From NCBI GenBank assembly GCA_004431415.1, contig QPMI01000313.1, positions 1 through 50,980 on the forward strand: a stretch of DNA of 50,980 nucleotides, given 5' to 3'. Below, one piece after another: positions 1,567 through 35,914 of this stretch; the stretch's first letter is position 1, and each line of letters begins with the position of its first letter. This stretch comes from Cyanophora paradoxa CCMP329. Taxonomy: Eukaryota; Plantae; Glaucophyta. The position numbers and the translations under genes were made by a program. The notes under the pieces were generated by a model. The model was not told the DNA's origin and did no database searches. It saw only the letters and a program-made list of their open reading frames with translations.

Positions 1567-2074
1567 AGCTGAGCTTGGCGCGTTGTCTCCAACAATTAAA
1601 TCCGCGAATTCTTACGATTTACCGTAACAGCATCAAATCTAATCGAAAATCACCGTAAGGCTCAGTGTCACGATCGATTCATCTTCGATTCATCTTCGAT
1701 TCACTCGATTCATCTTCGATTCAATCGATTCAATTCAACTTTTTATGCGCGGCTTCTCCCACGATTCCGCACGATAGACAGTAAGGAGATCTATTGTACA
1801 ATCGATTCCGCAAGATAAGCGGCAATGTACAATAGATCTCGCACGATAAACAGTAACAATTCACCTTTTTTCGCGCGGTGTCTCCCACGATAACAACACG
1901 CTTCAATAAAAATAAATCTTACGTCGGGTTTCGCCCTTCCCCCGTCGTTTTCGGTGCAGCAAATGGTTGCGCAACCATTTTTTTTGGTTGCGCAACCACC
2001 GCAACCAGGTCGCGCAACCACCGCAACCAGGTCGCGCAACCATTTTTTTTGGTTGCGCAACCACCCCGCAACCA
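1567..2074 (+). repeat. Left terminal inverted repeat (508 bp)
   Basis: Reverse complement of 11902-12409; I found 4 substitutions by eye. Confidence 0.97.
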
Positions 2075-2221
2075 ACGCAACCACCCCGCAACCAACGCAA
2101 CCACCCCGCAACCCCCGCTAAACCGTTACAGTCGTGGGTTCATGACTAATGAACGCCGATTGTCTCTTTTTTATCGCTCTTCGTCTCATGAATTTCCTAA
2201 AACCTTTCACGTCATCTTCTG

Positions 2222-2874
2222 TTAAGATCGCGCGATCTGTGTAAGTCTTAATGTCATAACTTGCAAACTTGCGATTACAGTTTGGTAATTATGTCCCCAC
2301 AGGCGATGTAGTTCTTTGTAAGTTTTCTTATCCATTCCACCGTTGTATTCATCGTAAGCACAGTTAAACTCTTTTTCATTTCCTAAAATGTTAAAGAATA
2401 CCACGAATTCCACATTACGACGAATGGTAGTAGAAATAGAACAGATACGTTGGACATTAAAAATAACCGAAATCGAATAATGGCGTCCACTTGTAACCAA
2501 TTTAGATAACACAGCGTTATTATGCATGTCCAGAGTGGAACCTATCATGTCATCAAGAATCAAAACTAAATTGTGGCGTTTCTCGTTGTTCTCGATTCGT
2601 TTTTTTGCATGCTGATCAATCTTAAAACTAAATCATCATTCCATTCCTCGTAAATATTATCGGGATGGGTGATGTCTCTAAATTGACCAGTAAACGCAGT
2701 CGAACTAAAAACTACGATCTGATCGATTTTATCGCGTAGTTCGAAAAGTAAATATTTCGTGAACATTGTCTTACCAGTGTTCGAGCGTCCACAATTTAAG
2801 ATTCGCGTAGGTATTTTAATTGTTCTGTTCGGCTCGAATTCCGGTATATTGTTTAGGTCTACTGTGTTATCCAT
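2222..2874 (-). CDS. A32/FtsK-HerA-family DNA packaging ATPase (frameshifted at T7 run 2600-2606; C-terminus uncertain)
   Basis: Walker A GRSNTGKT, 'IVVFSST', Walker B (LVL)ILDD and A32 motif GRHYSISVIFNVQ. ORFs 2566-2874 and 2222-2563 join as MQKKRIENNEKRHNLVLILDD if one A is added. Confidence 0.92.
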
Positions 2875-2924
2875 TACAGTAATCCCATAAAAAAACGATT
2901 AAGCCAATAACCCACACCAATCGC

Positions 2925-4150
2925 TTAGAAGTTACTTACTTTAAGCGTAGAAATATTATAGCCGTTGAGAACGAGAACGTTGTGGCGAAGTGCGTAAATG
3001 TCAACAACAACAGGTGCAGCATCAGTGCAACCGGAAACTGTGAGATCCATGTAGGAACTCGAAGAATTGAAGAAATCTTGGTAACCCATGACAGAGTTGT
3101 GCAGGGAATCCTTACCGGACTTCGAAAGAACGATCCCGTAAACATTGCCGCCTTGGAATCCGAAGTTTACATTACCAACGGTAGTTCCCTTGTAATGCGA
3201 GGGGATGTGGTTCACAGCCGAAAGGAACCCACTAATCGGTCGGTTCGAGATGTCGAGAGAACGATTATTGTGGAAGATTTGGAACTGATCAATCTTAACA
3301 TTTCCTTCGTAGCCCTCGAAATCTGAATGCGTGTATTTGTTGAGTTTGTTAACTTCGCGCACCGTCATAAGAATGCTGTGAACGAGACCGGAAACATTCG
3401 CAAGCGAAACTTCGACAGATTCGCCCGCATCGGCGGTTTTCTGTGATCGAGTTCGCTTCTGAATCACTTCGGTAATCGGAATGCGAATTCCCCCCTGTTC
3501 GTTCGCCATTTTCAGTAGCGCTTCCGCCTCGGGGGAGGCGATGTTAACGAATTGACAGATCAGGGCGCAGTCGGTCATCGCCAAAGCTCCCCCAGAGGGA
3601 ACCTGAACTACCGCAGCTTCGCGGAAATCAACTTCAATCGTAGGCATATCGGCAAGAACGCAAAGTGGGAAATACGCATCATCCCAGAATTGCGCCGGAA
3701 TTTTAACAACATATTCCCAGGTCTTATCGGTGCTGTTTCGGTTGTTCTCTGAGTAGTAACCCAGCGAAACAAACATGCTCGCCATTGTGGCGTGGTCGTT
3801 ATCGACGAGCGCGTTTACAGTAATCCAATCGCCGGAATGATGTATTTGAACCCACCGTGAACGAAGCGGACTTCGGAAATAAACGACGAACCACCATTGG
3901 GCATTACGCATTGAACGGCGCCACCCGTTGTGACCTTAAAATTGAGACTAACGCCGCTAAGAAGTTGCTTACGCGGTAGATCAAAGTAAGCGGTTGTTTT
4001 GAATCCGAAAGTGTTACCACGAGGGCGGACTTGCTCTAAAAACGGTTTATACTTGGGATTGGTTCCGATTTGAAGACCAGGCGATAAATACACTTGATCC
4101 GAACCGGGAGTCACAAGTAGTTCTTTAAGAGTTGTTCCACTAAGCGCCAT
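2925..4150 (-). CDS. Major capsid protein, double jelly-roll (~408 aa; frameshifted near 3851-3853)
   Basis: The joined frame gives SEVRFVHGG-VQIHHSGDW (cf. the 'ELEIGGQRIDKHYGDW' pattern of DJR MCPs), YFPLCVL..IEVDFR and C-terminal DIYALRHNVLVLNG. Beta-rich, and located between the ATPase and the penton. Confidence 0.8.
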
Positions 4151-4202
4151 TTTCGCTGTTTACAATACAACAAGAAATTTTTAAATTACAATAATAAACA
4201 GA
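4151..4202. promoter_or_regulatory. Putative bidirectional promoter between the MCP and penton genes
   Basis: 52-bp AT-rich spacer between divergent ATGs; TAAACAG lies just upstream of both start codons on their respective strands. Confidence 0.5.
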
Positions 4203-5096
4203 ATGACGCGTTATTATATTAATATTGATTCGAGAGATCGCGAAAATGGAACACCTTCCGAATTTCTCTACAAACTTCCCCATGCAATTCAAAAGGTTAA
4301 AGCATGCAGAGTTACAAATTTCGAAATGTTTAACAATATTTACAACCTTGCAGAGGCAGGATCACTTACCACATCTACCAAAGATGCAGCAGGAAGCACA
4401 AAGAACAGACATAATATTATTGCAAAAGGTTCATACACAACAGACAGTTTAGTGAATTATCTAATTGCTAAGATTGGATCACAGAACTATTCCCAAAGTC
4501 CCAGTGGAACCTATACCAAACACTTCTATGTAACTTATGATCCTATCACAATGTTTTTGAGGTTCATTTGTGAATCTGAATTCAGCATCACTATGGGCAG
4601 TCAGATTCTTGCTAATTTTCTTGGGTTTAAAGATGCAAACAAAGTATACCCCTCAGCACTATTAGATGGGAGTGTTACCATTGGATCATACACATACACA
4701 CACTACATAGACAGTGAAATACCATTAGACCTTCTATTTAATTCCTACTTGCTTCTACACATTGCACAACTAAAAGGCAAGTATGTGAGCAATAACACCA
4801 AAGATAATAATGCTCTTGCTAAAATTGAGATTGACAAGACAGTTGGTAGTTTGCTAATATATGATTCTTCAAATAATGCAATGATCACCCATGAACAGAA
4901 TGGCTTGGTGGAACTTGAAGCAATGGATGTAAGACTTTCTTATTGGAATGGTAACACAGCAGACATCACAACTGATTGGAGTATGACATTAGAAGTTGTG
5001 ACTGAGGATGAGAAGGAACTAACCAAGAGATCACTTCAAAAGGTGATACAAGATTTCGAAGAGGCATTCATTCCATTTTGTAGGTCATATCTGTAA
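4203..5096 (+). CDS. Minor capsid protein (penton, single jelly-roll), 297 aa
   Basis: N-terminal YINIDSRDR...FLYKLP..IQKV and C-terminal LEAMDVRL...DWSMTLEV are typical of PLV/NCLDV pentons. Divergently transcribed from the MCP. Confidence 0.8.
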   Translation: MTRYYINIDSRDRENGTPSEFLYKLPHAIQKVKACRVTNFEMFNNIYNLAEAGSLTTSTKDAAGSTKNRHNIIAKGSYTTDSLVNYLIAKIGSQNYSQSPSGTYTKHFYVTYDPITMFLRFICESEFSITMGSQILANFLGFKDANKVYPSALLDGSVTIGSYTYTHYIDSEIPLDLLFNSYLLLHIAQLKGKYVSNNTKDNNALAKIEIDKTVGSLLIYDSSNNAMITHEQNGLVELEAMDVRLSYWNGNTADITTDWSMTLEVVTEDEKELTKRSLQKVIQDFEEAFIPFCRSYL

Positions 5097-5120
5097 AAAA
5101 TATATCTTTGCATATATCAA

Positions 5121-5879
5121 ATGTCAGGATCCAGGAAAACCCAACCCAAGAATTTCTTGTCGAAACCTGTTGCAGATGCCGATGGGATAACAGAGGGAAA
5201 GAAGGGAAGGAATTGGGACAAGAAACCCAAAGGAACAGCAGCACTTGGAACAGGTGATCTTGACAAGGACATCCACAAAATGATGAATCAGCACACAGCA
5301 ACACCAACTGATAATGCGAACGACGATAACGCTTTGATTGACCAAGTTCCACTGAATCGAATGCCTAAGAAGCGAAAGCATTTCAGAGAGAAGACCAAAG
5401 AGAAACTTTTACCATCCGCCACGCTTTTAAAGCTTCTTGATGGCGGCGAGCGACTTTATTCGACATACTCGGAGAAGGATAACCGCAATCGTTACTTTAT
5501 CCGCTTGAAAACGGGCGGTCTTAAATCGGTCAAATACCAGGACGCCAAAAAAATGGTTCAGGGGATTGCGAACGAGACCGCGTTAGAGAACAAGATTCTC
5601 GAACAGCAGATCACGAAAGAGAAGGTCGAAAAGAAACCGGATGTGACGTTCGACGTTCTTCCCGATCCAATCACAACCGCGAAGAATACGCCAATTGAAT
5701 TAATCGCTAAGACCATCGATTACGCGGAGAGTAACAAGACCGATTTACCGGTAATGAACAAGAGTTTACTTCGGGTCGCCACTTCGCAAGCCGACCCCAT
5801 TACATCGGTTCCCTCCGCCGCCCCCATGCTTTCGGGGTTCGCAAAACTTGGGATCCGCCCCGGTTACCGGAGGTTTTAA
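5121..5879 (+). CDS. Hypothetical Lys-rich protein, 252 aa
   Basis: Long ATG-initiated ORF 24 bp after the penton; NLS-like PKKRKH; no recognisable family. Confidence 0.7.
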   Translation: MSGSRKTQPKNFLSKPVADADGITEGKKGRNWDKKPKGTAALGTGDLDKDIHKMMNQHTATPTDNANDDNALIDQVPLNRMPKKRKHFREKTKEKLLPSATLLKLLDGGERLYSTYSEKDNRNRYFIRLKTGGLKSVKYQDAKKMVQGIANETALENKILEQQITKEKVEKKPDVTFDVLPDPITTAKNTPIELIAKTIDYAESNKTDLPVMNKSLLRVATSQADPITSVPSAAPMLSGFAKLGIRPGYRRF

Positions 5880-6235
5880 AACCGACCTTTGCGTAGCCCG
5901 ACGTTAATGATCATTTTGCCGTTAAAAAATTTCTTGTTCAAATGTAGCGCTACGTAAACAATCCATTCGCGTAGGCTCACGTTTACTCATTTTTATGGGT
6001 GGCGTTGTAGAAAGAAGTGATATCCATGTATATCGCGCTTTTATCACCTGTTCTACGGGGTTCATTCGTGGAAACTTGCGACCGACAAGTAGACAATCGG
6101 GGACACTTCGATTTATTTTCCGGCATCTTCTTTCAAAACGGTGCAAAAAAATGACGGCTTTTCAAGACAAGTATATACCAACAACAAAAAGGACTTAAAG
6201 ATTTCTTGTTATATATCAGAAGAGGACAAAGTACG

Positions 6236-6490
6236 ATGCCGATTAGCGAAGCACAGAAGCGCGCAATTTACCGTTACCGCAAGACCGAAAAGGGTCGTGA
6301 ATATCTTAAAAAGTACAGCAACAGACTGTCGAAACAAATGAAGGAATTATACGACACCGACGAGTGTTACCGAGCGATGAAGATAGTCGATAGTTCACAA
6401 CGCCAGTACGTCGCTAACGCCGTGTGTTACATTAAATACCTTTATGGGGTTCCGCACTCAAATCGGGGGCGCCCCTCGATCTACTTCTGA
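6236..6490 (+). CDS. Small basic hypothetical protein, 84 aa (MPISEAQKRAIYRYRK...), possible DNA-binding regulator
   Basis: ATG at 6236 downstream of an AT-rich motif that also precedes the polymerase gene; basic, probably helical N-terminus. Confidence 0.6.
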   Translation: MPISEAQKRAIYRYRKTEKGREYLKKYSNRLSKQMKELYDTDECYRAMKIVDSSQRQYVANAVCYIKYLYGVPHSNRGRPSIYF

Positions 6491-6725
6491 TCTTGTTTTT
6501 TCTCAGCGCGTTTGCCCTGAGAACCCAGCGCGAGCGCAACCGCGCTTAATCGTAATAAATCTTGTTTGTATTATTTTTAGAACCATTGTATGATGGTCGA
6601 CCCTTTGTTATTTTTCCTATTTGCTTGACCGATCGCTAAAATGCGCCGGTCAAAAAATGACGTCATAGAATAAAATCACTTAAAGAATAAATTTATTTGT
6701 ATAGAATAAGGAAAGCGCCAACAAA

Positions 6726-9700
6726 ATGCCTCGCGCAGTTAGTATCCAATCCGCTAAGAAGAGAGCGAGTATTCTTTCGAAGCTTGGTTATGCTCTTGGA
6801 AATGGGTTTATGAATGAAGAGCAATTTAACGCATTCGGTCACTTTGCCTTCGTCAGACGACCGAGACTAAGCGCACTGAACGACATCGAATACTCAATTG
6901 ATGATATCATTGCGAGAGGTGAGGCTCAGCAAAACACAGAAGACGAAATTAACCGCTTGGGTCGTATTGATGTTCCACAGGAGTTGGTGAATCAGCGACC
7001 AGAGAGAAACACAAAGACACACACGAATCCGTTCAATCGGATGAAAACCGATCTTGGCGAGTTCATTGCGAACTCGCCAGGCGACATGGTCACGCTGCAT
7101 GTTCGACTTTACAAAGAGGTCGCAGAGGACGAAATCGCGAATTTGCCCGCAAACGCTGTTGTGATTCAAGCGAACGGTTTGTATTACCGGGATCTGAAAA
7201 AGACCCGTAGTAATCAACCTCTTGCAATCCAATGTTCGAAAGAAGCGCTGCTTGCAAATCTCGAAAAAATAACGAACACATTCAATTCTTTCCCTGCTCT
7301 AACAACTGTCGAAGACATCCATCAATTCATGTTCGAAATCGTCCGCTTCAATCAGGAAAACCAGGACTTCCGATACTTGACGATTGTTCAAGAGGACATT
7401 TACGGTGAGATCATCACAATTGAACGAATCATCACCACCGACAACCAAACGTATACGCCGAGACAACAGCAAGCGCTACGCGATACGCAACATGCCCCGA
7501 TGATCATATCGAAGTATTTGCGCAATGAGACGAACCCAAAAGCCAAAACTTTGGGGGAACTGTTCATTAGGGGTGATAGATTTAAAGTGGGTCGGTGTGT
7601 TCCGGATGTGCTTGTGATGCATTTCGCACAGGCGTTTCAGAAAGCGCAAGCGAAAGGCAAGTATAAATCGGTCGATTGGACACACAGTGGAATATTTAAA
7701 ATGATTCGGGGTCGGGAACCCACAGAGGGGGACGATTGGGGCTTCACCTTTGAGGAAATCGTAGAAAAGGTTCTGACACCATACCGCATCGGAATGGTCA
7801 CGATCGATAAAGACGATAAGACCGAAATACCCGAACTCACTTTCAAACCGAAAACGAGAAATACACACCTCACGCCATCGGTTGCATACGTGAAAATCGA
7901 AAACGGTCACATGTATCTACTAAACGATAACCTGAAATCACTAACTCACTCTTTCAATGGGTCGAAGTCGAATTCTGACACGAATCTTTCGGTGGGTCGC
8001 GATTCAAGATTGTCAAGCAAAGAAAACATCGCGAATTTGCGGCAACTCCTGAGGATATCGTGAAAATCATCAATTCGGAGGAGATGAAGAACCAGAGCAA
8101 AATTTCGATCTGTTACAGTGGATACCTCGACGATCTTCTGAAAGAGTTCATTGTTGATGTGAATTACCAGGTGCATGCGGGGATTTCCCCAATGCGCAAG
8201 ATCACACACATTCATTTCACGTATGGTGAAAAGAGTATTACGATCACACCACCCGGTTCCGACACAGATGTGGAAACCGCTTACGAAGTGAAATTCAAAG
8301 ACGCAGAGTATCGTGATAAGTTCGAGCGGCTGAATCTGAAAATGTATCTGAGTCTCGTGAACAATGCAAACAAGAGTTCATACAACGATCAGACCATGAC
8401 AGCCTTCCGCCTTGGGTCACAGACCGCCCTTCGTGGGTTCTTCGACTTAGATACCGAAACCCGGGATGACCTCCATTGGAACGAAAACATTTACGAACAC
8501 GATGTGTGCAAGGCATACCCCGCAATCATCGCGAAACAGATCGAATTCGTTCCTGTCGTTAGTAAATTCGATTACTTCAAAAAGACGACTGTAACTTCCG
8601 CGGATCAGATCGAAAACTACAATTTCTATTACGTGAAGTTGCACTCGAAGTTTTTCAAACCAATGAAGAACCCCGACGGATCGACGTATTTTCTTAACAC
8701 GTATGATCGTCACAAGCGCATGCTAATTGATTCGGCTTACAATGTCATTCCGGGAATGGTTCTGAAAAAACACTACGATGCTCTGAAAGACGACATTACC
8801 ATAAAGGGAGTTCTCCGACCATTTAAGTTGGTTCCGAATTTCTCGGGCGATGTGATTCGGCAAATCATGCAAAGTGATCTTGACCCGAACGATAAAAAGC
8901 AAATGCTTGTCGCCAATATCGGACAGATTGGGAAACAGAAAAACCACAAAGTAAAGACCACGATCTTCAACAAGAGAGACGATGCGATCGAATTCCAAAA
9001 GCAATATGGCGGAGAAGTAAAGCTCTACGTGTTTGGTAAAGATCCAACATCGTATGACCCAACTTGTTACGTCATTAGCGAGGAAGAGATTACGGAACCG
9101 TGTATCTACTATGTGAATCAAGTAGCCGAAAGATATCTTACCGATGGGTTCATGCCGTTCCACAACCTGATGTATTCCCTAATGCGCATGAATCTATACG
9201 AGAAGTGCGTAGAACTCAGTGCAAAAGGGATTAATCCTGTTGCTGTGAATACCGATTGCGTCTACACTACCTCGTGCGACCCAATCCCCCTCGTTAGTTT
9301 CGACCGCCACGCCTACGAAAACATCGGGGGTTCAGTGTAAAGCATTGCCCCAATTTCATCAAGAAGTATATCGGCAAAGACAAGGTGCTAAACTTGCGGC
9401 GTATTCACTACGGCAAATTGGAGCGACAGGACGACTTCGTGAAATTAGAGAAGTTGAACTATTTCACTTTCTCAGCAGTTGATGAATTCGACACACCAGC
9501 GATTTGTCTAACTCTTGCGACTCAGAAAAGATGGATTATTCTTGGCGTTGTTCCCGGAGTGGGGAAAACTCACATGATGATGGAGTATTCGAAGCAATTC
9601 CAAAATCCACTTTTCATCGTTCCGACAAACAAGCGCATTCGAGACATGAAGTTGAAAGGCATAAAGAATGTCAAAACTATTTACGATGCGCTCCATCTCA

Positions 9701-10827
9701 AAGTTGACGATTCGAACATGGAAGAGATCGTAGGCGGGAACGCTTCCGGTTTGGCGGACTTTGATGGTATTTTCATTGACGAAATCTGTCAGTTCACAGT
9801 CCCCGAGTTGGGGGCGCTCGCCCACATTATGGGGGTTCTGTTCCCCGACAAGGTCTACGTGGCTACCGGCGACCCCTTTCAGAACCCACCGATACAGGAG
9901 ATGACCGTAAATCAGAAAGAGTATTACGCGTATATTCTTCGGCATCTTTTCGGAAACGAGTTAGTCCTGAAAGTTAACAAGCGCCACAAGACCCAGGAAG
10001 ATCGCGATACAGTCGAGTGTATACGCCGTGATCTTTTCGAAAACGGTTTGAGTGTTCCCGATGTAATTAATAAATACAAGTTTGAGACGGTGAACGCATT
10101 GGGAAAGGATGACCGCGCGATAGTTTACACCAACCGCAAAGCGGCGGAAGTAAATCTACAAATCCACAGGATGAATCACGGGGAAGATGTTCCTATTTAC
10201 GCGAAAGGCGTGGAAATTGTCGCGAAGCAAAGGATCGTGAAGAATGGCGTAACCATTCACAATGGGTTCAGCTACACGATTAAGGCGTTTAACGACACAG
10301 AATTCGTCATCGAGGACATCGCGACGAAGGAGGAAGTGAGGTTAGACCCGCCCGCAATGCGCTATTTCGCGCTCCCTTACGCTTACACTTGTCACGTCAT
10401 TCAGGGTGATACTATTGTGTGCAAGAATGGGAACGTCGTCATTTACGAAGCGGGCGCACCGTTTGTTTCGAGCGAATGGTTTTACACAGCGGTCACACGA
10501 ACTACTGAACTAAATCGGGTCAAAATTTACCATGATGGATTCGAGTGGGCAACACATGTCGTTGACAAGCGCAAGTTCAATGAGCGCATTGAACAGTATA
10601 AGGAACAGGATAAGAAGGCAAACCGACCATTTGACGAAAACGATTATGTGAATTGGGAGTGGTTCAAAAAACGCTACGGAAAACAATATGGTCATTGCCT
10701 TCGTTGCTATGGTGGTATGGATTTCGATCTTAATGTAATCTCGATCGATCGAGTGAATAACGCATTGCCCCATACAACCAAAAATTGTTTCCTGTCTCAT
10801 ATTAGGTGTAACTGTGCTGCTCAGTAA
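6726..10827 (+). CDS. Replication polyprotein: N-terminal/Cys-His protease-like region + protein-primed family B DNA polymerase + SF1 (RecD/Pif1-like) helicase + HNH-like Zn domain (~1367 aa after repairing two frameshifts)
   Basis: PolB-like motifs: A YEHDVCKAYP, B KQMLVANIGQIGK, C AVNTDCVY. SF1 motifs: GVVPGVGKT, VPTNK, IFIDE, GDPFQNPP, NKRH, YAYTCHVIQGDT, YTAVTR. C-terminal CLRC...SIDRVNN..H...NC...H..CN. Frames join at G runs 7994-7996 and 9326-9330. Confidence 0.85.
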
Positions 10828-12185
10828 TGGACAACGTTCTATCTTACAAGAAGTATCGACAGAAACTTATAAACGAAAATGTAACATTTGACGAAAAAGA
10901 ATTGAAAAAGCGATATTTAAATTCCGAAGTGCATCAGATTTTTAAGAAACCCCGAAAACCCACCACATTTTTAAGAATCGTCGCGAAACCGAATTCATTT
11001 CAGGTAGACATTATGTTTTTTAAAGGGTATCAGACAGCAAACAATGGTATTTACAAGATGATCAGTTTCGTTGACATTCTAAGTCGAAAGGCATTCGTGT
11101 ATCCTTTTAAGAACAACGAAGACATTCCGAATATTCTGAATAAATTCAAACAGGAAGCGGGTATGGTTGCTGCACTCTCAGGTGATAATGAATTCAGTAG
11201 CGCGATGTATAGAGATTGGTGTAATGCGAATGGTGTGAGGTTGTATACAGATGTCGCGAAAGAAGAACACATAACCGTAGGAAATAAACTTGGAATCATA
11301 GATAGATTTAAGCGCACTTTTAAACAGTATCTACGCAAGTCGATGACTTCGAAAGGGACAACGAAATGGATAGATATGGTTCCCGAAGTTCTATCGATTT
11401 ATAACAATAGCCCCCATAGTTCCTTAAAGAATGATTCGCCGAACGCCGTGTATGCAAACGTAGATAAACAACTTTTTGTGTATCTACGGGATACTGTTCA
11501 CAACGACAACGTGAAGGCGAATGAAACGAATCCCGTGAAACCGGGCGACACAGTGCGTGTTTTGGAGGGTCGCGTGGGTGCCTTCGACAAAGAGGGCGCC
11601 CGTTTTAGTCAAAAGGTCTACAAAGTGGGAAGGTCGGATGGGAACCGGTTCAAGATTTTAGAAGATAACGACGGAGACGAGAAGGAAGTAAAGCGGCGCT
11701 TTAAGAAGCAAGAATTACAGAAGGTGAATAAGGAAGAGATCATAAAGATCCCGTCGCAAAAGCGCATTGAACGCGTAAAGAAAACGAATAAGGTGAATCG
11801 GTTGGTCGCGAAGGAGGGCGTCAGACCCAATCGAAGTAGGGTCGTGAGGCGTCGGTACAATCTGAGGAGCGGCGTAACGAAGCGGGGGGATCATAAAAAA
11901 ATGGTTGCGGGGTGGTTGCGCAACCAAAAAAAATGGTTGCGCGACCTGGTTGCGGTGGTTGCGCGACCTGGTTGCGGTGGTTGCGCAACCAAAAAAAATG
12001 GTTGCGCAACCATTTGCTGCACCGAAAACGACGGGGGAAGGGCGAAACCCGACGTAAGATTTATTTTTATTGAAGCGTGTTGTTATCGTGGGAGACACCG
12101 CACGAAAAAAGGTGAATTGTTACTGTTTATCGTGCGAGATCTATTGTACATTGCCGCTTATCTTGCGGAATCGATTGTACAATAG
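10827..12185 (+). CDS. Retroviral-like (rve) integrase of Polinton type; true stop probably TAA at 11894-11896
   Basis: FQVDIMF, VDILSRKAFVYP, SGDNEF, GIIDRFKRTFK, YNNSPHSSL..SP and SH3-like PGDTVRV...FDK. Consistent with the 6-bp TSD. Confidence 0.92.
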   Translation: MDNVLSYKKYRQKLINENVTFDEKELKKRYLNSEVHQIFKKPRKPTTFLRIVAKPNSFQVDIMFFKGYQTANNGIYKMISFVDILSRKAFVYPFKNNEDIPNILNKFKQEAGMVAALSGDNEFSSAMYRDWCNANGVRLYTDVAKEEHITVGNKLGIIDRFKRTFKQYLRKSMTSKGTTKWIDMVPEVLSIYNNSPHSSLKNDSPNAVYANVDKQLFVYLRDTVHNDNVKANETNPVKPGDTVRVLEGRVGAFDKEGARFSQKVYKVGRSDGNRFKILEDNDGDEKEVKRRFKKQELQKVNKEEIIKIPSQKRIERVKKTNKVNRLVAKEGVRPNRSRVVRRRYNLRSGVTKRGDHKKMVAGWLRNQKKWLRDLVAVVARPGCGGCATKKNGCATICCTENDGGRAKPDVRFIFIEACCYRGRHRTKKGELLLFIVRDLLYIAAYLAESIVQ

Positions 12186-12409
12186 ATCTCCTTACTGTCT
12201 ATCGTGCGGAATCGTGGGAGAAGCCGCGCATAAAAAGTTGAATTGAATCGATTGAATCGAAGATGAATCGAGTGAATCGAAGATGAATCGAAGATGAATC
12301 GATCGTGACATTGAGCCTTACGGTGATTTTCGATTAGATTCGATGCTGTTACGGTAAATCGTAAGAATTCGCGGATTTAATTGTTGGAGACACCGCGCCA
12401 AGCTCAGCT
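11902..12409 (-). repeat. Right terminal inverted repeat (508 bp)
   Basis: Reverse complement of 1567-2074, followed directly by the TSD CCCACC. Confidence 0.97.
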
Positions 12410-15400
12410 CCCACCCACCCGCAAGTCACTCAGTCAAAGGCCCCAGGTTTCCAATCTGCCAGAAAAAAGAAGAAAGATGCACCCCAAATCTCTCTGGGGG
12501 AATATGCACAAGGCGCTAGCCTAAGGCAGATGACCCACCCACCAGCAAGTCACTCAGTCAAAGGCCCCAGGTTTCCAATCTGCCAGAAAAAAGAAGAAAG
12601 ATGCACCCCAAATCTCTCTGGGGAATATGCACAAGGCGCTAGCCTTAGGCAGATGACCCACCCACCCACAAGTCACTAAATCAAAAGCCCCAGGTTTCCA
12701 ATCTGCCAGAAAAAAGAAGAAAGATGCACCCCAAATCTCTCTGGGGGAATATGCACAAGGCGCTAGCCTTAGGCAGATGACCCACCCACCGCAAGTCACT
12801 CAGTCAAAGGCCCCAGGTTTCCAATCTGCCAGAAAAAAGAAGAAACATGCACCCCAAATCTCTCTGGGGGAATATGCCCAAGGCGCTAGCCTTAGGCAGA
12901 TGACCCACCCACCAGCAAGTCACTCAGTCAAAGGCCCCAGGTTTCCAATCTGCCAGAAAAAAGAAGAAAGACCCCAAATCTCTCTGGGGGAATATGCACA
13001 AGGTGCTAGCCTTAGGAAGATGACCCACCTAAAAGCAAGTCACTCAGTCAAAGGCCCCAGGTTTCCAATCTGCCAGAAAAAAGAAGAAGGATGCACCCCA
13101 AATCTCTCTGGGGAAATATGCCCAAGGCACTAGCCTTAGGATGATGACCCACCCACCAGCAAGTCACTCAGTCGAAGGCCCCAGGTTCAGGATCTGTGAC
13201 AAAATCAAAGAAAGATGCACCCCAAATCTCTCTGGGGGAATATGCACAAGGCGCTAGCCTTAGGCAGATGACCCACCCACCCGCAAGTCACTCAGTCAAA
13301 GGCCCCAGGTTTCCAATCTGCCAGAAAAAAGAAGAAAGATGCACCCCAAATCTCTCTGGGGGAATATGCACAAGGCGCTAGCCTTAGGCAGATGACCCAC
13401 CCACCAGCAAGTCACTCAGTCAAAGGCCCCAGGTTTCCAATCTGCCAGAAAAAAGAAGAAAGATGCACCCCAAATCTCTCTGGGGGAATATGCACAAGGC
13501 GCTAGCCTTAGGCAGATGACCCACCCACCAGCAAGTCACTCAGTCAAAGGCCCCAGGTTTCCAATCTGCCAGAAAAAAGAAGAAAGATGCCCCCCAAATC
13601 TCTCTGGGGGAATATGCACAAGGTGCTAGCCTTAGGCAGATGACCCACCCACCCACAAGTCACTAATTCAAAAGCCCCAGGTTTCCAATCTGCCAGAAAA
13701 AAGAAGAAAGATGCACCCCAAATCTCTCTGGGGGAATATGCACAAGGCGCTAGCCTTAGGCAGATGACCCACCCACCCGCAAGTCACTCAGTCAAAGGCC
13801 CCAGGTTTCCAATCTGCCAGAAAAAAGAAGAAACATGCACCCCAAATCTCTCTGGGGAATATGCCCAAGGCGCTAGCCTTAGGCAGATGACCCACCCACC
13901 AGCAAGTCACTCAGTCAAAGGCCCCAGGTTTCCAATCTGCCAGAAAAAAGAAGAAAGATGCACCCCAAATCTCTCTGGGGGAATATGCACAAGGCGCTAG
14001 CCTTAGGCAGATGACCCACCCACCAGCAAGTCACTCAGTCAAAGGCCCCAGGTTTCCAATCTGCCAGAAAAAAGAAGAAAGATGCACCCCAAATCTCTCT
14101 GTGGGAATATGCCCAAGGCGCTAGCCTTAGGCAGATGACCCACCCACCAGCAAGTCACTCAGTCAAAGGCCCCAGGTTTCCAGAAGAAGAAGAGTATGTA
14201 TAAGACAGGCCCAAGCCGGTTGTGCAAGGTTTCCAATCTGCCAGAAAAAAGAAGAAAGATGCACCCCAAATCTCTCTGGGGGAATATGCACAAGGCGCTA
14301 GCCTTAGGCAGATGACCCACCCACCAGCAAGTCACTCAGTCGAAGGCCCCAGGTTCAGGATCTGTGACAAAATCAAAGAGAGATGCACCCCAAATCTCTC
14401 TGGGGGAATATGCACAAGGTGCTAGCCTTAGGCAGATGACCCACCTAAAAGCAAGTCACTCAGTCAAAGGCCCCAGGTTTCCAATCTGCCAGAAAATAGA
14501 AGAAAGATGCACCCCAAATCTCTCTGGGGGAATATGCACAAGGCGCTAGCCTTAGGCAGATGACCCACCCAAATCTCTCTGGGGGAATATGCACAAGGCG
14601 CTAGCCTTAGGCAGATGACCCACCCACCAGCAAGTCACTCAGTCAAAGGCCCCAGGTTTCCAATCTGCCAGAAAAAAGAAGAAAGATGCACCCCAAATCT
14701 CTCTGTGGGAATATGCCCAAGGCGCTAGCCTTAGACAGATGACCCACCCACCAGCAAGTCACTCAGTCAAAGGCCCCAGGTTTCCAGAAGAAGAAGAGTA
14801 TGTATAAGACAGGCCCAAGCCGGTTGTGCAAGGTTTCCAATCTGCCAGAAAAAAGAAGAAAGATGCACCCCAAATCTCTCTGGGGGAATATGCACAAGGC
14901 GCTAGCCTTAGGCAGATGACCCACCCACCAGCAAGTCACTCAGTCGAAGGCCCCAGGTTCAGGATCTGTGACAAAATCAAAGAGAGATGCACCCCAAATC
15001 TCTCTGGGGGAATATGCACAAGGTGCTAGCCTTAGGCAGATGACCCACCTAAAAGCAAGTCACTCAGTCAAAGGCCCCAGGTTTCCAATCTGCCAGAAAA
15101 AAGAAGAAAGATGCACCCCAAATCTCTCTGGGGAAATATGCACAAGGCGCTAGCCTTAGGCAGATGACCCACCCAAATCTCTCTGGGGGAATATGCACAA
15201 GGCGCTAGCCTTAGGCAGATGACCCACCCACCCGCAAGTCACTCAGTCAAAGGCCCCAGGTTTCCAATCTGCCAGAAAAAAGAAGAAAGATGCACCCCAA
15301 ATCTCTCTGGGGGAATATGCCCAAGGCGCTAGCCTTAGGAAGATGACCCACCCACCAGCAAGTCACTCAGTCGAAGGCCCCAGGTTCAGGATCTGTGACA

Positions 15401-18400
15401 AAATCAAAGAAAGATGCACCCCAAATCTCTCTGGGGGAATATGCACAAGGCGCTAGCCTTAGGCAGATGACCCACCCACCCGCAAGTCACTCAGTCAAAG
15501 GCCCCAGGTTTCCAATCTGCCAGAAAAAAGAAGAAAGATGCACCCCAAATCTCTCTGGGGAATATGCACAAGGCGCTAGCCTTAGGCAGATGACCCACCC
15601 ACCAGCAAGTCACTCAGTCAAAGGCCCCAGGTTTCCAATCTGCCAGAAAAAGAAGAAAGATGCCCCCAAATCTCTCTGGGGGAATATGCACAAGGTGCTA
15701 GCCTTAGGCAGATGACCCACCCACCAGCAAGTCACTCAGTCAAAAGCCCCAGGTTTCCAATCTGCCAGAAAAAAGAAGAAAGATGCACCCCAAATCTCTC
15801 TGGGGGAATATGCACAAGTCACTAGCCTTAGGCAGATGACCCACCCACCCGCAAGTCACTCAGTCAAAGGCCCCAGGTTTCCAATCTGCCAGAAAAAAGA
15901 AGAAAGATGCACCCCAAATCTCTCTGGGGGAATATGCCCAGGGCACTAGCCTTCGGAAGATGACCCACCCACCAGCAAGTCACTCAATCGAAGGCCCCAG
16001 GTTCAGGATCTGTGACAAAATCAAAGAAAGATGCACCCCAAATCTCTCTGGGGGAATATGCACAAGGCGCTAGCCTTAGGCAGATGACCCACCCACCGCA
16101 AGTCACTCAGTCAAAGGCCCCAGGTTTCCAATCTGCCAGAAAAAAGAAGAAAGATGCACCCCAAATCTCTCTGGGGGAATATGCACAAGGCGCTAGCCTT
16201 AGGCAGATGACCCACCCACCAGCAAGTCACTCAGTCAAAGGCCCCAGGTTTCCAATCTGCCAGAAAAAAGAAGAAAGATGCACCCCAAATCTCTCTGGGG
16301 GAATATGCACAAGGTGCTAGCCTTAGGCAGATGACCCACCCACCCACAAGTCACTAATTCAAAAGCCCCAGGTTTCCAATCTGCCAGAAAAAAGAAGAAA
16401 GATGCACCCCAAATCTCTCTGGGGGAATATGCACAAGGCGCTAGCCTTAGGCAGATGACCCACCCACCCGCAAGTCACTCAGTCAAAGGCCCCAGGTTTC
16501 CAATCTGCCAGAAAAAAGAAGAAACATGCACCCCAAATCTCTCTGTGGGAATATGCACAAGGCGCTAGCCTTAGGCAGATGACCCACCCACCCGCAAGTC
16601 ACTCAGTCAAAGGCCCCAGGTTTCCAATCTGCCAGAAAAAAGAAGAAAGATGCACCCCAAATCTCTCTGGGGGAATATGCACAAGGCACTAGACTTAGGC
16701 AGATGACCCTCCCAAATGCAAGTCACTCAGTCCAACGCCCCAGGTTTCCGATCTGCCACAAAAAGAAGAAAGATGCACCCCAAATCTCTCTGGGGGAATA
16801 TGCACAAGGCGCTAGCCTTAGGCAGATGACCCATCCACCAGCAAGTCACTCAGTCAAAGGTCCCAGGTTTCCAATCTGCCAGAAAAAAGAAGAAAGATGC
16901 ACCCCAAATCTCTCTGGGGGAATATGCACAAGGCGCTAGCCTTAGGCAGATGACCCACCCATGTATGGGGGCTTGCCCCTCAGTTGGTGTGTTGGGTGGA
17001 AATACAGTGTGGTGTCCAGGAACTTGTCCTGGTACATCAGCGTGTGAACCCATAGTGTACTACGGGACAAGATGTACCCCAAATCCCTCTGGGGGGATAT
17101 GCACAAGGCGCTAGCCTTAGGCAGATGACCCACCCACCAGCAAGTCACTCAGTCGAGGGCCCCAGGTTTCCGATCTGCCAGAAAAAAGAAGAAAGATGCA
17201 CCCCAAATCTCTCTGGGGGAATATGCACAAGGCGCTAGCCTTAGGCAGATGACCCACCCACCAGCAAGTCACTCAGTCAAAGGCCCCAGGTTTCCAATCT
17301 GCCAGAAAAAAGAAGAAAGATGCCCCCAAATCTCTCTGGGGGAATATGCACAAGGCGCTAGCCTTAGGAAGATGACCCACCCACCCACAAGTCACTAATT
17401 CAAAAGCCCCAGGTTTCCAATCTGCCAGAAAAAAGAAGAAAGATGCACCCCAAATCTCTCTGGGGAATATGCACAAGGCGCTAGCCTTAGGCAGATGACC
17501 CACCCACCACTAAGTCACTCAGTCGAAGGCCCCAGGATAAGGATCTGTGACAAAATAGAAGCAAGATGCACCCCTAACCCTAACCAAAATCTCTCTGGGG
17601 GAATATGCACAAGGCGCTAGCCTTAGGCAGATGACCCACCCATGTATGGGGCTTGCCCCTCAGTTGGTGTGTGGGTGGAAATACAGTGTGGTGTCCAGGA
17701 ACTTGTCCTGGTACATCAGCGTGTGAACCCATAGTGTACTACGGACAAGATGTACCCCAAATCCCTCTGGGGGGATATGCACAAGGCGCTAGCCTTAGGC
17801 AGATGACCCACCCACCAGCAAGTCACTCAGTCAAAGGCCCCAGGTTTCCGATCTGCAACAAAAAGAAGAAAGATGCACCCCAAATCTCTCTGGGGAATAT
17901 GCACAAGGCGCTAGCCTTAGGTAAATGACCCTCCAAAAGCAAGTCACTCAGTCGAAGGCCCCAGGTTTCCGATCTGCAACAAAAAAGAAGAAAGATGCAC
18001 CCCAAATCCCTCTGGGGAATATGCACAGGGCGCTAGCCTTAGGCAGATGACCCTCCCACCAGCAAGTCACTCAGTCGAAGGCCCCAGGTTTCCAATCTGC
18101 CAGAAACTAGAAAAAGGATGCACTTCATATCCCTCTGGAGGAATATGCACAAGGCGCTAGCCTTAGGCAGATGAACCCACCCACCAGGAAGTCACTCAGT
18201 CGAGGGCCCCAGGTTTCCGATCTGCTTGAGAAAAGAAGAAAGATGCACCCCAAATCTCTCTGGGGGAACATGCACAAGGCGCTAGCCTTAGGCAGATGAC
18301 CCACCCACCACCAAGTCACTCAGTCGAAGGCCCCAGGATAAGGATTTGTGACAAAATACAAGCAAGTTGCACCCCTAACCCTAACCCAAAATCTCTCTGG

Positions 18401-21400
18401 GGGAATAAGTTCAAGGCGCTAGCCTTAGGCAGATGACCCACCAACCTGCAAGTCACTCAGTCGAAGGCCCCAGGTTTCCGATCTACCACAAAATCGAAGA
18501 AAGATGCACCCCAAATCCCTCTGGGGGAGTATGCACAAGGCGCTAGCCTTAGGAAGATGACCCACCTAAAAGCAAGTCACTCAGTTGAAGGCCCCAGATG
18601 TCCAATCTGCCAGAAAGAAGAAGAAAGATGCACCCCAAATCTTTCTGGGGGAATATGCACAAGGCGCTAGCTTTAGGCAAATGACCCACCCACCAGCAAG
18701 TCACTCAGTCGAAGGCCCCATATTTCCAATCTGCCAGAAAGAAGAAAAAAGATGCACCCCAAATCTCTCTGGGGGACTATGCACAAGGCGCTTGCTTTAG
18801 GAAGATGACCCAGCCACCTGCAAGTCACTCATTCGAAGGCCCCAGATTTCCAATCTGCCAGAAGAAAGCAGAAAGATGCACCCCAAATCTCTCTGGGGGA
18901 ATATGCACAAGGCGCTAGCCTTAGGAAGATGATCCACCCACCAGCAAGTCACTAATTCGAAGGCCCCAGGTTTCCAATCTGCCAGAAGAAAGAAGAAAGA
19001 TGTTTCCCAAATCTCTCTGGGGGAATATGCACAAGGCGCTAGCCTTAGGCAGATGACCCACCCACCAGCAAGTCACTCAGTCAAAGGCCCCAGGTTTCCA
19101 ATCTGCCAGAAAAAAGAAGAAAGATGCCCCCCAAATCTCTCTGGGGGAATATGCACAAGGCGCTAGCCTTAGGAAGATGACCCACCCACCCACAAGTCAC
19201 TAATTCAAAAGCCCCAGGTTTCCAATCTGCCAGAAAAAAGAAGAAAGATGCACCCCAAATCTCTCTGGGGGAATATGCACAAGGCGCTAGCCTTAGGCAG
19301 ATGACCCACCCACCACTAAGTCACTCAGTCGAAGGCCCCAGGATAAGGATCTGTGACAAAATAGAAGCAAGATGCACCCCTAACCCTAACCCAAAATCTC
19401 TCTGGGGGAATATGCACAAGGCGCTAGCCTTAGGCAGATGACCCACCCATGTATGGGGGCTTGCCCCTCAGTTGGTGTGTTGGGTGGAAATACAGTGTGG
19501 TGTCCAGGAACTTGTCCTGGTACATCAGCGTGTGAACCCATAGTGTACTACGGGACAAGATGTACCCCAAATCCCTCTGGGGGGATATGCACAAGGCGCT
19601 AGCCTTAGGCAGATGACCCACCCACCAGCAAGTCACTCAGTCAAAGGCCCCAGGTTTCCGATCTGCAACAAAAAAGAAGAAAGATGCACCCCAAATCTCT
19701 CTGGGGGAATATGCACAAGGCGCTAGCCTTAGGTAGATGACCCTCCCAAAAGCAAGTCACTCAGTCGAAGGCCCCAGGTTTCCGATCTGCAACAAAAAAG
19801 AAGAAAGATGCACCCCAAATCCCTCTGGGGGAATATGCACAGGGCGCTAGCCTTAGGCAGATGACCCTCCCACCAGCAAGTCACTCAGTCGAAGGCCCCA
19901 GGTTTCCAATCTGCCAGAAACTAGAAAAAGGATGCACTTCATATCCCTCTGGAGGAATATGCACAAGGCGCTAGCCTTAGGCAGATGAACCCACCCACCA
20001 GGAAGTCACTCAGTCGAGGGCCCCAGGTTTCCGATCTGCTTGAGAAAAGAAGAAAGATGCACCCCAAATCTCTCTGGGGGAACATGCACAAGGCGCTAGC
20101 CTTAGGCAGATGACCCACCCACCACCAAGTCACTCAGTCGAAGGCCCCAGGATAAGGATTTGTGACAAAATACAAGCAAGTTGCACCCCTAACCCTAACC
20201 CAAAATCTCTCTGGGGAATAAGTTCAAGGCGCTAGCCTTAGGCAGATGACCCACCAACCTGCAAGTCACTCAGTCGAAGGCCCCAGGTTTCCGATCTACC
20301 ACAAAATCGAAGAAAGATGCACCCCAAATCCCTCTGGGGAGTATGCACAAGGCGCTAGCCTTAGGAAGATGACCCACCTAAAAGCAAGTCACTCAGTTGA
20401 AGGCCCCAGATGTCCAATCTGCCAGAAAGAAGAAGAAAGATGCACCCCAAATCTTTCTGGGGAATATGCACAAGGCGCTAGCTTTAGGCAAATGACCCAC
20501 CCACCAGCAAGTCACTCAGTCGAAGGCCCCATATTTCCAATCTGCCAGAAAGAAGAAAAAGATGCACCCCAAATCTCTCTGGGGGACTATGCACAAGGCG
20601 CTTGCTTTAGGAAGATGACCCAGCCACCTGCAAGTCACTCATTCGAAGGCCCCAGATTTCCAATCTGCCAGAAGAAAGCAGAAAGATGCACCCCAAATCT
20701 CTCTGGGGGAATATGCACAAGGCGCTAGCCTTAGGAAGATGATCCACCCACCAGCAAGTCACTAATTCGAAGGCCCCAGGTTTCCAATCTGCCAGAAGAA
20801 AGAAGAAAGATGTTTCCCAAATCTCTCTGGGGGAATATGCACAAGGCGCTAGCCTTAGGAAGATGACCCACCCACCCACAAGTCACTAATTCAAAAGCCC
20901 CAGGTTTCCAATCTGCCAGAAAAAAGAAGAAAGATGCACCCCAAATCTCTCTGGGGGAATATGCACAAGGCGCTAGCCTTAGGAAGATGATCCACCCACC
21001 AGCAAGTCACTAATTCGAAGGCCCCAGGTTTCCAATCTGCCAGAAGAAAGAAGAAAGATGTTTCCCAAATCTCTCTGGGGGAATATGCACAAGGCGCTAG
21101 CCTTAGGCAGATGACCCTCCCAAAAGCAAGACACTCAGTCAAAGGCCCCAGGTTTCCGATCTGCCACAAAATAGAAGAAAGATGCACCCCAAATCTCTTT
21201 GGGGGAATATGCACAAGGCGCTTGCCTTACACAGATGACCCACCCACCAGCAAGTCACTCAGTCATAGGCCCCAGGTTTCCAATCTGCCAGAAAATAGAA
21301 AAAGGATGCACTTCAAATCTCTTTGGAGGAATATGCACAAGGCGCTAGCGTTAGGCAGATGACCCACCCACCAGCAAGTCACTCAATCGAAGGCCCCATA

Positions 21401-22129
21401 TTTCCAATCTGCCAGAAAGAAGAAAAATGCACCCCAAATCTCTCTGGGGGAATATGCACAAGGCGCTAGCCTTAGGCAGATGACCCAGCCACCTGCAAGT
21501 CACTCATTCGAAGGCCCCATATTTCCAATCTGCCAGAAAGAAGAAGAAAGATGCACCCCAAATCTCTCTGGGGGACTATGCACAAGGCGCTTGCTTTAGG
21601 AAGATGACCCAGCCACCTGCAAGTCACTCATTCGAAGGCCCCAGATTTCCAATCTGCCAGAAGAAAGAAGAAAGATGCACCCCAAATCTCTCTGGGGGAA
21701 TATGCACAAGGCGCTAGCCTTAGGAAGATGACCCAGCCACCTGCAAGTCACTCATTCGAAGGCCCCAGATTTCCAATCTGCCAGAAGAAAGAAGAAAGAT
21801 GTTTCCCAAATCTCTCTGGGGGAATATGCACAAGGCGCTAGCCTTAGGAAGATTACCCACCCACCAGCAAGTCACTCAGTCAGAGGCCCCAGGTTTCTGA
21901 TCTGTGACAAAAAAAAGCAAGATGCACCCCGAATCTCTCTGGGGGAAGATGCACAAGGCGCTAGCCTTAGGAAGATGACCCACCCACCAGCAAGTCACTC
22001 AGTTGAATGCAGTAGGTTTTTGATCCGCCACAAAATAGAAGAAGGATACACCCCAAATCTCTCTGGGGGAATATGCACAAGGTGCTAGCCTTAGGCAGAT
22101 GACCCACCCACCAGCAAGTCACCAGCAAG
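12410..22129 (+). repeat. 124-bp satellite array (middle block) with higher-order repeats and small insertions
   Basis: Same monomer as the left block; divergence rises toward 22 kb. Confidence 0.98.
14183..14226 (-). mobile_element. 44-bp insertion with 9-bp TSD (second copy at 14787-14830); possible 5'-truncated non-LTR retroelement end
   Basis: AGGTTTCCA is duplicated at 14174-14182 and 14227-14235; on the minus strand the insert ends in TTC repeats. Confidence 0.55.
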
Positions 22130-22440
22130 CATCCTTCTTCTATTTTGTGGCAGATCCTTATCCTGGGGCCTTTGACTGAGTGACTTGGTGGTGGGTGGGT
22201 TTTCTTCGTAAGGCTAGCGCCTTGTTCAAATTCCCCCAGAGAGATTTGGGGTGCATCTTTCTTCTATTTTGTGGCTGATTGGAAACCTGGGGCCCTCGAC
22301 TGAGTGACTTGCTGGTGGGTGGGTTCATCTTCCTAAGGCCAGGGACTTGTGCATATTCCCCCAGAGAGATTTGGGGTGCATATTCTTCTATTTTGTGGCG
22401 GATCCCAAACCTGTGGCCTTCGACAGAGTGACTTGCTGGC
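22129..22440 (-). repeat. Satellite monomers in inverted orientation
   Basis: CCCCCAGAGAGATTTGGGGTGCATC and neighbouring sequence are the reverse complement of the monomer. Confidence 0.95.
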
Positions 22441-23076: not shown

Positions 23077-23233
23077 AAAAAAGAGTGCGTGTGCACCCAA
23101 TTTGGACTCAATTTGGGAGGCCCGTTGCAGAATTGGTTTTTGAACTGAGCACCTTGGAAAAAAACTGGATATGCTCGGAATTCACGACCCTCTACACATG
23201 CTCTGAGATTGTTGATTAGACATCCTACCAACC

Positions 23234-24442
23234 ATGAAAGCAATAAAATGGAAAGCATGTTTGATTGTCCTATTTACCAGCACATTTCTCTTCTTCCGAC
23301 TGACATGTGTCAAAGTGAAACAGCAACAAATTTTGGATTTCGCCACAATTTCTGGAAGTGCAGAAGAAGTTTCAGCTGCTTGGGAAGTCCTCGTGACGGA
23401 CGATCTAACGAGACACCAGCAAATCAATCACGCATGCCCAAAGTTTCTGTATCAGCCTCTCGCCGAAGGAGCTGGAATAGGACATCGCCTGGGTCAGTGG
23501 ATGACTGCTCTTACTGCAGCGCGTGCATTGAACCTCACTTTTGTTCATCAGTCCCTGGATTCCGAAAGGGGTGCGTTGCTTACTGCGTTTCATCTGTGCT
23601 GTGAATAACACTTCGAAGATGGTGTGCACGGAGTTTACCGGCAATGGGACGAGTTCTTGAACCTAGGTTCTGGCGAACTTAAAGTTCGAGATATCCAGCC
23701 CATGCAGGTCTCGCGAACTAGACTTCCAAAAGTTCCTAACATTGAAAACACAGCCGCAATGTGGAATCAACTAAAATCCCATGTTTCGGACCAACGTCTC
23801 TGCAATGTCGTTTATGAGCTGCCTGTACGTTCGGTTTTTCCGTAAATTCTTTTGCACTCGTGTTTTACAAATGCGCAGGAAATGTGGTCGTATGATTACG
23901 GGCTTGACATTAAAAAGATAACAAGCTCGAAGTTTCAGCGTAGTGAGATGCGGAAACGTCAGTTTCCCCTTTCTTGGTCCAATGAAAGGAATAAGCTCCA
24001 CGTAGCTATCCATGTCCGGATGGGCGACATTGTTCCAACACCCGAGGAGTTTTTCCTGGGGGTAATACATGCAATCATTTCCGTTTTAGGAAGGCAAAAT
24101 GTGCATTTCTGGATTTTTTCAGAAGGGGACATACATCATAAGTATCCCAACATGGTTTCCATGCTGACGAATTTCACTGTACTGAACAAACTTTCAGCAA
24201 TGAGTGCATTTGTTCATCTCACCGAAGCAGACATACTGATTATATCTCAAAGTGGATTTTCTGAGTTTGCATCATTCTTATCAACGAAGCCATTGGTTTT
24301 CTCCCCTCCTTCTCGAGAGAGCTTCCCGTACAGATTTTGCCACGACCCTGCAATCTGTTGTACCATTTCTGGTGACTGCAGATTTGAAGGCTTCCAGCGC
24401 TTGGCTGTTCTTAAACTTCTTTTTCATGGCAAACATCAATGA
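23234..24442 (+). CDS. Spliced fucosyltransferase-superfamily (GT11/GT23-like) glycosyltransferase, ~368 aa; exons 23234-23570, 23619-23824, 23879-24442
   Basis: N-terminal signal-anchor, GAGIGHRL, VAIHVRMGD (motif I), WIFSE, and HLTEADILIISQSGFS (motif III). Two GT..AG introns of 48 and 54 bp join the three ORF pieces in frame. Confidence 0.75.
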
Positions 24443-27476: not shown

Positions 27477-27503
27477 CATTCCAAAGGGATTGTACACTCC
27501 TTT

Positions 27504-35906: not shown

Positions 35907-35914
35907 GTATATTC

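Follow-up and report, generated by a model that had tools for sequence, protein, structure and literature searches.

Whether the polymerase carried by a Polinton-like element in the glaucophyte Cyanophora paradoxa CCMP329 is an active enzyme, and whether it is encoded by one gene at all, are the questions raised by the locus described herein. The window, i.e. the whole stretch of DNA analyzed, comprises 50,980 nucleotides (nt; assembly GCA_004431415.1, contig QPMI01000313.1, positions 1 to 50,980, forward strand), and its replicase span, 6726-10827, contains no single open reading frame (ORF), only three overlapping plus-strand frames (6726-8063, 7979-9340 and 9298-10827). A first-pass annotation, made from the letters alone, had read this span as a family B DNA polymerase of the protein-primed type (pPolB) fused to a superfamily 1 (SF1) helicase. 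Fusions of this kind, with a missing exonuclease and motif 4 and with an HNH tail, were described in 2016 and called probably inactive (PMC5499653), but this view was withdrawn by its authors in 2024 (Krupovic), when the TP-vOTU-palm-S1H fusions were all predicted to be active (PMC11161782).

The results obtained herein make it likely that the span encodes, in one gene, the pPolB-S1H protein ("Tlr1-like helicase") of an integrated Polinton-like virus (PLV), a predicted active polymerase without proofreading. The order of its domains is a variable N-domain, an OTU protease, an exonuclease remnant, a phi29-like palm, an SF1B helicase, and an HNH-like zinc module.

Probably one gene in three frames

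First, a single gene, broken up by assembly indels, very likely accounts for the three frames. Among 24 public sequencing runs listed, 20 (from 15 studies, all with the same organism label) contain 92-94% of the sampled words, and the contigs of 8 of these 20 (at least 7 studies, with one run that could be the window's own source) were compared with the window. At both replicase overlaps, an indel relative to the window was observed in the contigs of all 8 runs, and each time the whole depth of the contig over that place shows it. The breaks in the packaging ATPase gene and the candidate major capsid gene of the same element behave alike: each of the 8 runs has an indel at all four coding breaks, with few exceptions at full depth. 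These indels are located in single-letter runs, where errors of long-read sequencing typically fall. In addition, the three replicase pieces are colinear with four single proteins of 1,299-1,368 amino acids, and the 100 long homologues (at least 1,150 amino acids) are single chains. Together, the recurrent indels and the single-chain homologues make one gene very likely, and they support the first-pass annotation in joining polymerase and helicase in one chain.

Two other explanations have been weighed. The frames might be separate genes, or be joined by programmed frameshifting, as the overlaps in the window and the split of some metagenomic loci (L005, L021, L027 and L033) would suggest; however, the split points of those loci differ among themselves and, set against the indels in 8 of 8 runs and the 100 single chains, this explanation is scarcely conceivable. 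The breaks might also be real in this copy, which would then be a young pseudogene among intact sister copies. Fragmented fusions are known from the PLVs of Oxyrrhis (PMC12721341). The contigs collapse several copies, with many variant sites, and the two inverted repeats of the element differ at 4 of 508 places. Nevertheless, the indels occur at all four coding breaks and in single-letter runs, the listed contigs are otherwise nearly letter-for-letter identical to the window over 7404-10178, and frame breaks are also found in the neighboring Gypsy ORFs, so a pseudogene is possible but unlikely.

The copies appear to form a family under selection, since the differences among them are biased to third positions: of 67 places listed, 55 of the 66 coding sites are at codon position 3, and the 4 of them in the replicase are all third-position. 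Several further observations concern these copies. They differ at many listed capsid and ATPase sites (2874-5096) and at few listed replicase sites (7404-10178), a contrast hinting at module exchange among copies. At 11358, a contig in runs X1 and X8 exits the integrase gene and runs on into the same satellite, and this suggests that the satellite also harbors a truncated sister copy. At 6723-6851, all four runs that appear to be DNA have a deeper contig with the replicase start, 67 nt skipped, and a different continuation, which may represent a related or non-autonomous element.

The palm and its aspartates

Second, the polymerase piece (7979-9340, plus strand), read from models and the homologue alignment, comprises the exonuclease remnant and a protein-primed PolB palm and fingers with TPR1- and TPR2-like insertions. 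The motifs noticed previously, motif A (HDVCKAYP, Asp at 8501-8503) and motif C (NTDC, Asp at 9254-9256), are present. With a five-row palm profile, 1,653 clusters were retrieved at E<=1e-3, of which 396 reached 1e-30; the best 150 together with earlier matches, 152 proteins including the 100 long ones, were examined, and each count refers only to the homologues covering that column. The motif A Asp is kept in 147/147 homologues and the motif C Asp in 135/144 (8 gaps, 1 Met), and neither varies freely. Palm identity to the nearest homologue is only 29%. The proposed motif B (K..VAN.G) was misread at its Asn: its Lys (8897-8899) and Gly are kept in 149/150 and 148/150 homologues, but the conserved Asn column holds Val (8909-8911), with the Asn of VANIG two residues later, where 31/150 homologues also have an Asn. 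No other letter than that for Val is seen at this place in the listed contigs of X1 and X8.

The structural comparison with phi29 DNA polymerase, which had been suggested as a check, argues against a chance occurrence of these motifs. The model of the palm piece (53-row alignment) has a predicted local distance difference test (pLDDT) score of 87.7 and a predicted template-modelling (pTM) score of 0.83. With this model, Foldseek returned nine matches at E<=0.001, all of them phi29 polymerase (best E 1.3e-9), and in a VIA scan of 48,161 chains phi29 polymerase was the only one with Z>=8 (Z 12.6, root-mean-square deviation (rmsd) 4.4, 327 aligned). When the two were compared by VIA, model residues 1-422 fell on phi29 residues 46-480 (Z 13.5, rmsd 4.4, 328 aligned), with palm, fingers and TPR-like insertions matching; the 328 residues aligned, versus ~150 for Pol alpha, point to the protein-primed type. 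In the model, beta-rich insertions resembling TPR1 and TPR2 follow motif A and motif B, the motif A Asp is predicted at the end of strand 147-151, and the motif C Asp at the turn between strands 395-400 and 403-407, so that both appear to be placed as in a palm. The palm piece alone gave no match by word search, in viral contigs, in PDB sequences, or in Pfam, and its best match in the viral library was an unnamed 999-residue protein (H6WBE3, E 4e-13).

In phi29 numbering, the range 46-480 starts after Exo I and ends before KxY and the thumb. Because the match starts at residue 46, the first ~100 residues of the piece are read as an exonuclease remnant, degenerate and present in the model. The earlier statement that exonuclease motifs are missing is correct in that none is functional and no acidic column is invariant (none exceeds ~83% in the ~130-144 homologues covering the region), but it overlooked this remnant. 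KxY and the thumb also appear to be absent across the family, and the KKY that follows the second break in the window is not a family feature. The replicase therefore has the non-functional exonuclease and the absent motif 4 (KxY) of a pPolB-S1H protein, and lacks the intact exonuclease and thumb of a canonical Polinton/Maverick pPolB.

Domains on either side of the palm

Third, recognizable domains are observed on both sides of the palm. The first piece (6726-8063, plus strand) is modeled as a variable N-domain, an alpha/beta middle domain, and an OTU protease (21 rows; pLDDT 65 overall, ~90 in the OTU part). The OTU-like cysteine protease domain, which the first-pass annotation missed, spans residues 255-402 (7488-7931, plus strand) with Cys291 (7596-7598) and His395 (7908-7910), kept in 89/91 and 91/91 homologues, respectively. 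For this region, OTU domains fill the first 11 VIA rows, with a best Z of 7.3 that is middling alone (rmsd 3.7, 114 aligned). A vOTU with its Cys and His thus lies upstream of the palm, as in pPolB-S1H proteins. The alpha/beta middle domain (~residues 100-240, pLDDT ~55-85) is a candidate terminal protein.

The third piece (9298-10827, plus strand), assigned by profile and motifs, is an SF1B helicase of RecD2/Dda/Pif1-like type followed by the HNH-like module. Walker A GVGKT (9556-9570), Walker B DE, motif V QG and motif VI TR are present, Walker A is found in all 100 long homologues, and the helicase profile ranks RecD2 first (E 3e-12), then Dda and Pif1-like chains, hence the SF1B assignment. 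Palm and SF1 helicase thus stand in one chain with the helicase C-terminal, as in pPolB-S1H proteins; the helicase starts ~100 codons after motif C in the window and at a median of 86 in the homologues.

The zinc module (10696-10827, plus strand), recognized by its motif, has the pattern CxxC...DR...H...N...HxxCN. That a CxxC/HNH-like module closes the protein had been proposed correctly; that it is an addition had not, for in the 100 long homologues the first CxxC is kept in 90-91, the His in 88 and the Asn in 93, and the module was described in 2016 (PMC5499653). In the window, HxxC replaces the second CxxC, with His for one zinc Cys. Arg stands in the window and in 87/100 long homologues at the position that the catalytic His, after the Asp, occupies in HNH nucleases. 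The catalytic His of an active HNH homing endonuclease is accordingly absent, and from these residues the tail is likely a non-cutting zinc DNA-binding module.

A predicted active enzyme without proofreading

Herein, we propose the following mechanism for replication of the element. Cleavage by the OTU protease would release the N-terminal part to serve as terminal protein, and on this the palm would begin DNA at the inverted ends. The SF1B helicase, placed where KxY and the thumb normally follow, may stand in for the thumb: moving 5'-3' on the displaced strand, in fork direction, it would supply both strand displacement and grip. The HNH-like tail would bind DNA rather than cut it, and the RVE (retrovirus-like) integrase would insert copies with a 6-bp duplication. 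As had been claimed, no second polymerase was found among the ORFs of the element (ORF list and Pfam).

Several points weigh against an active replicase encoded by one gene. The examined homologues are the top scorers of a profile that holds these Asp, so the counts lean high; the palm placement of both Asp was read from secondary structure; and the contigs merge several copies, so that this copy could truly carry both indels. Val occupies the motif B column that holds Asn in 143/150 homologues, the motif B Tyr is replaced family-wide by Thr, Ile or Leu, and KxY is found in only 6 of the 72 testable homologues (28 of the 100 long proteins, without an anchor, were left out). No terminal-protein fold was recognised in the N-terminal model (Foldseek gave no match at all at E<=0.001, VIA none of that kind), which does not itself show that one is absent, and a literature search of limited scope found no in vitro polymerase assay for the family.

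The losses of Exo I, KxY, the thumb and the motif B Tyr, together with the Val of this protein, would also suit a catalytically dead palm that serves as a DNA-binding scaffold for the helicase while a host or helper-virus polymerase copies the element, as was argued in 2016 (PMC5499653). However, the retention of both Asp in proteins that are 20-30% identical overall is hard to explain without metal binding, active PolBs without the same first motif C Asp exist (PMC11161782), and the Cys and His of the OTU domain persist, as they should if a terminal protein has to be released. A dead palm is, in our estimation, improbable. Polymerase activity of the pPolB-S1H family is predicted with high confidence, and for the enzyme of this element the expectation is somewhat lower because of the Val in motif B.

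The first-pass annotation had favored an active, proofreading-less enzyme, in agreement with our prediction. Its second reading, a rare form that stands in evolution between Polinton pPolB, which is active, and the inactivated fusions, is not supported and rests on the superseded "inactivated" label of 2016. A remnant of the exonuclease is indeed still discernible in the model, but the corresponding region of the homologues has no strongly conserved acidic column, both Asp are the family norm among fusions predicted to be active (PMC11161782), and only the motif B Val and the His for one zinc Cys set this protein apart, such that intermediate status is very improbable.

Relation to known elements

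The predicted active replicase shares with the pPolB-S1H fusions of PLVs and transpovirons (PMC5499653; PMC11161782) the variable N-domain, the alpha/beta middle domain, the vOTU Cys and His, a palm with TPR1/2 and motifs A-C with a single motif C Asp, the lack of a working exonuclease and of motif 4, the SF1B helicase, the C-terminal HNH, and the predicted activity. It differs from them in the Val at the motif B Asn column and in HxxC for the second CxxC, and the structural exonuclease remnant seen here is described in that literature for mavirus rather than for these fusions. With phi29 DNA polymerase, palm, fingers and TPR-like insertions are common, without Exo I, KxY and thumb. Tlr1 of Tetrahymena, compared by description, shares inverted ends, an RVE integrase, capsid proteins, an ATPase and the fusion protein, with no maturation protease found, but ends in GIY-YIG, whereas the fusion described here ends in HNH (PMC5499653).

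Many endogenous elements with a palm-SF1 helicase fusion have been reported (PMC13215967). Groups 2 and 3 of these pMVREs, which overall occur in at least 97 eukaryote genomes, are likewise endogenous, with inverted repeats, a truncated pPolB that retains the palm, an SF1 helicase, and often RVE; the present element may already be among those listed there. The helicase-pPolB of the endogenous PLV of Oxyrrhis (OmPLV) is also an SF1 helicase-pPolB fusion, but with reversed order, a full exonuclease, no vOTU found and an independent origin (PMC12721341). Forty metagenomic relatives (L001-L040) have the same fusion with a helicase only 25-34% identical, and in 16 of the 40 loci the integrase directly follows it (L001 and L003 being one contig). 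One of these loci, L004 (92-9626), combines the capsid genes of a Sputnik-type virophage with a pPolB-S1H-HNH fusion, which could reflect a swap of the replication module.

The element and its setting

The replicase belongs to a complete, integrated Polinton-like element of 10,843 bp (1567-12409), delimited by its ends (AG...CT), inverted repeats of 508 bp (left 1567-2074, right 11902-12409, 4 mismatches between the arms), and a 6-bp target duplication (CCCACC) in a 124-bp satellite. The inverted ends, the target duplication, the RVE integrase and the ATPase are as in a Tlr1-type PLV. The A32-like packaging ATPase lies on the minus strand in two frames (2222-2874; Pfam Pox_A32, E 3e-3 and 8e-6), next to a candidate major capsid gene (2925-4150, minus strand) that is a lead only: its Atlas features are similar at 0.97 to clusters with Capsid_NCLDV, which is found on 13-18% of cluster members, and its recognition score is under threshold. 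On the plus strand, 4203-5096 encodes a probable minor capsid protein, so labeled from its position and a motif, and with no database match. A 252-residue ORF (5121-5879, plus strand), without a Pfam match or assigned function, has 7 of its 8 listed variants at codon position 3, and a small basic ORF of 83 residues (6239-6490, plus strand, from the ORF list) likewise has no function assigned. The RVE integrase (10827-12185, plus strand) gave a Pfam rve match below the cut-off (E 0.0095) and phmmer matches down to E 2e-23 with integrases of related loci; its ORF in the window extends into the right inverted repeat. No Ulp1-like maturation protease was recognized by Pfam among the ORFs of the element.

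An AT-rich motif (TTAAA..TTCTTGT) precedes several genes of the element (4170-4184 on the minus strand, 5922, 6195 and ~6681) and, judged from its recurrence, is a candidate viral promoter. The remainder of the window consists largely of repeats. Large satellite arrays of 121-124-bp units with orientation changes (1-1566, 12410-22439 and 38619-50980), possibly centromeric, enclose both the Polinton-like element and Ty3/Gypsy copies (26369-38491), which are nested or in tandem, encode protease, RT, RNase H and integrase, and are broken in frame in several cases. A glycosyltransferase-11-like ORF (23216-24442; Pfam E 2e-4, below cut-off) and an ORF upstream lie amid satellite and retroelement pieces, and the former, used as a query, turned up no longer homologue.

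Splice-like joints

Among the 8 runs, X2, X11, X19 and X7 (four studies) are RNA-like and X1, X8, X12 and X16 are DNA-like. The RNA label, recorded for none of them, is a tool's guess for three runs and our reading for X7; it is backed by the joints described here and by the lack of any X19 or X7 depth over the outer repeat, which two DNA-like runs cover deeply. In the contigs of 4/4 RNA-like and 0/4 DNA-like runs, GT..AG joints skip 64 nt of the helicase (10341-10404, plus strand), and such joints also take out stretches of 58 and 56 nt from the gene for the probable minor capsid protein. In 2/4 RNA-like runs, a CT..AC joint that is in sense orientation for the ATPase on the minus strand removes the GKT of Walker A. 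The 64-nt stretch encodes most of helicase motif V, whose pattern is present in 89/100 homologues, and its removal shifts the frame to a stop 36 codons on. In all, the skipped GT-AG stretches confined to RNA-like contigs are 2719-2774, 2862-2939, 3665-3720, 4296-4353, 4429-4484 and 10341-10404; all fall within open frames, catalytic motifs are deleted by two of them, another covers both the stop of the capsid gene and the start of the ATPase gene, and one is antisense. A joint at 11507/11643, without GT-AG ends, was set aside.

Because motif V and Walker A are lost, these stretches are not normal introns of the genes concerned; the likeliest reading of the joints is cryptic splicing, in a helper-dependent virus that lacks adaptation to transcription in the nucleus. 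Nucleus-foreign sequences are spliced at chance sites in Neurospora (PMC4408805), and an endogenous giant virus has true introns in latency genes (10.64898/2026.10.09.758095). Some findings do not fit simple splicing. With both capsid-gene stretches removed, the frame stays open as far as the natural stop; a weak joint runs antisense; only one of the 105 GT..YAG pairs of 50-80 nt in the replicase gene is seen used; and the joints come from contigs, which give no spliced fraction. Furthermore, in the four RNA-like runs, and in no other, contig depth is approximately twofold higher past the helicase joint, although neither transcript starts nor levels can be read from contigs. An integrase transcript that starts internally and has an intron in its leader is conceivable; this leader would carry 12 ATGs.

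As a tentative hypothesis, a multi-copy, intact and selected provirus might be transcribed in the nucleus, where the host spliceosome would cut chance introns of 56-64 nt from its messages, and with them helicase motif V and the Walker A of the ATPase. Its genes would then be meant for transcription free of splicing, such as takes place in a giant-virus factory, and the cryptic splicing might act as a built-in lock keeping the provirus dormant until a helper virus arrives; the lock function in particular is speculative. In the literature consulted, including passages of PMC12220804 and 10.64898/2026.07.28.741278, no report of splicing of integrated PLV or virophage transcripts was found, which is not proof of absence.

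Conclusions

The enzyme type and the prediction of its activity are already in print, and the C. paradoxa protein adds a member. To the existing prediction, the present study adds the aspartate counts for motifs A and C, as well as three further points, namely the remnant of an exonuclease, a helicase standing in the place of the thumb, and a fixed, likely non-cutting HNH tail that is no passing homing endonuclease. Moreover, if confirmed in raw reads, the splicing observation would make it cheap to test where a Polinton-like virus, once integrated, is supposed to be transcribed.

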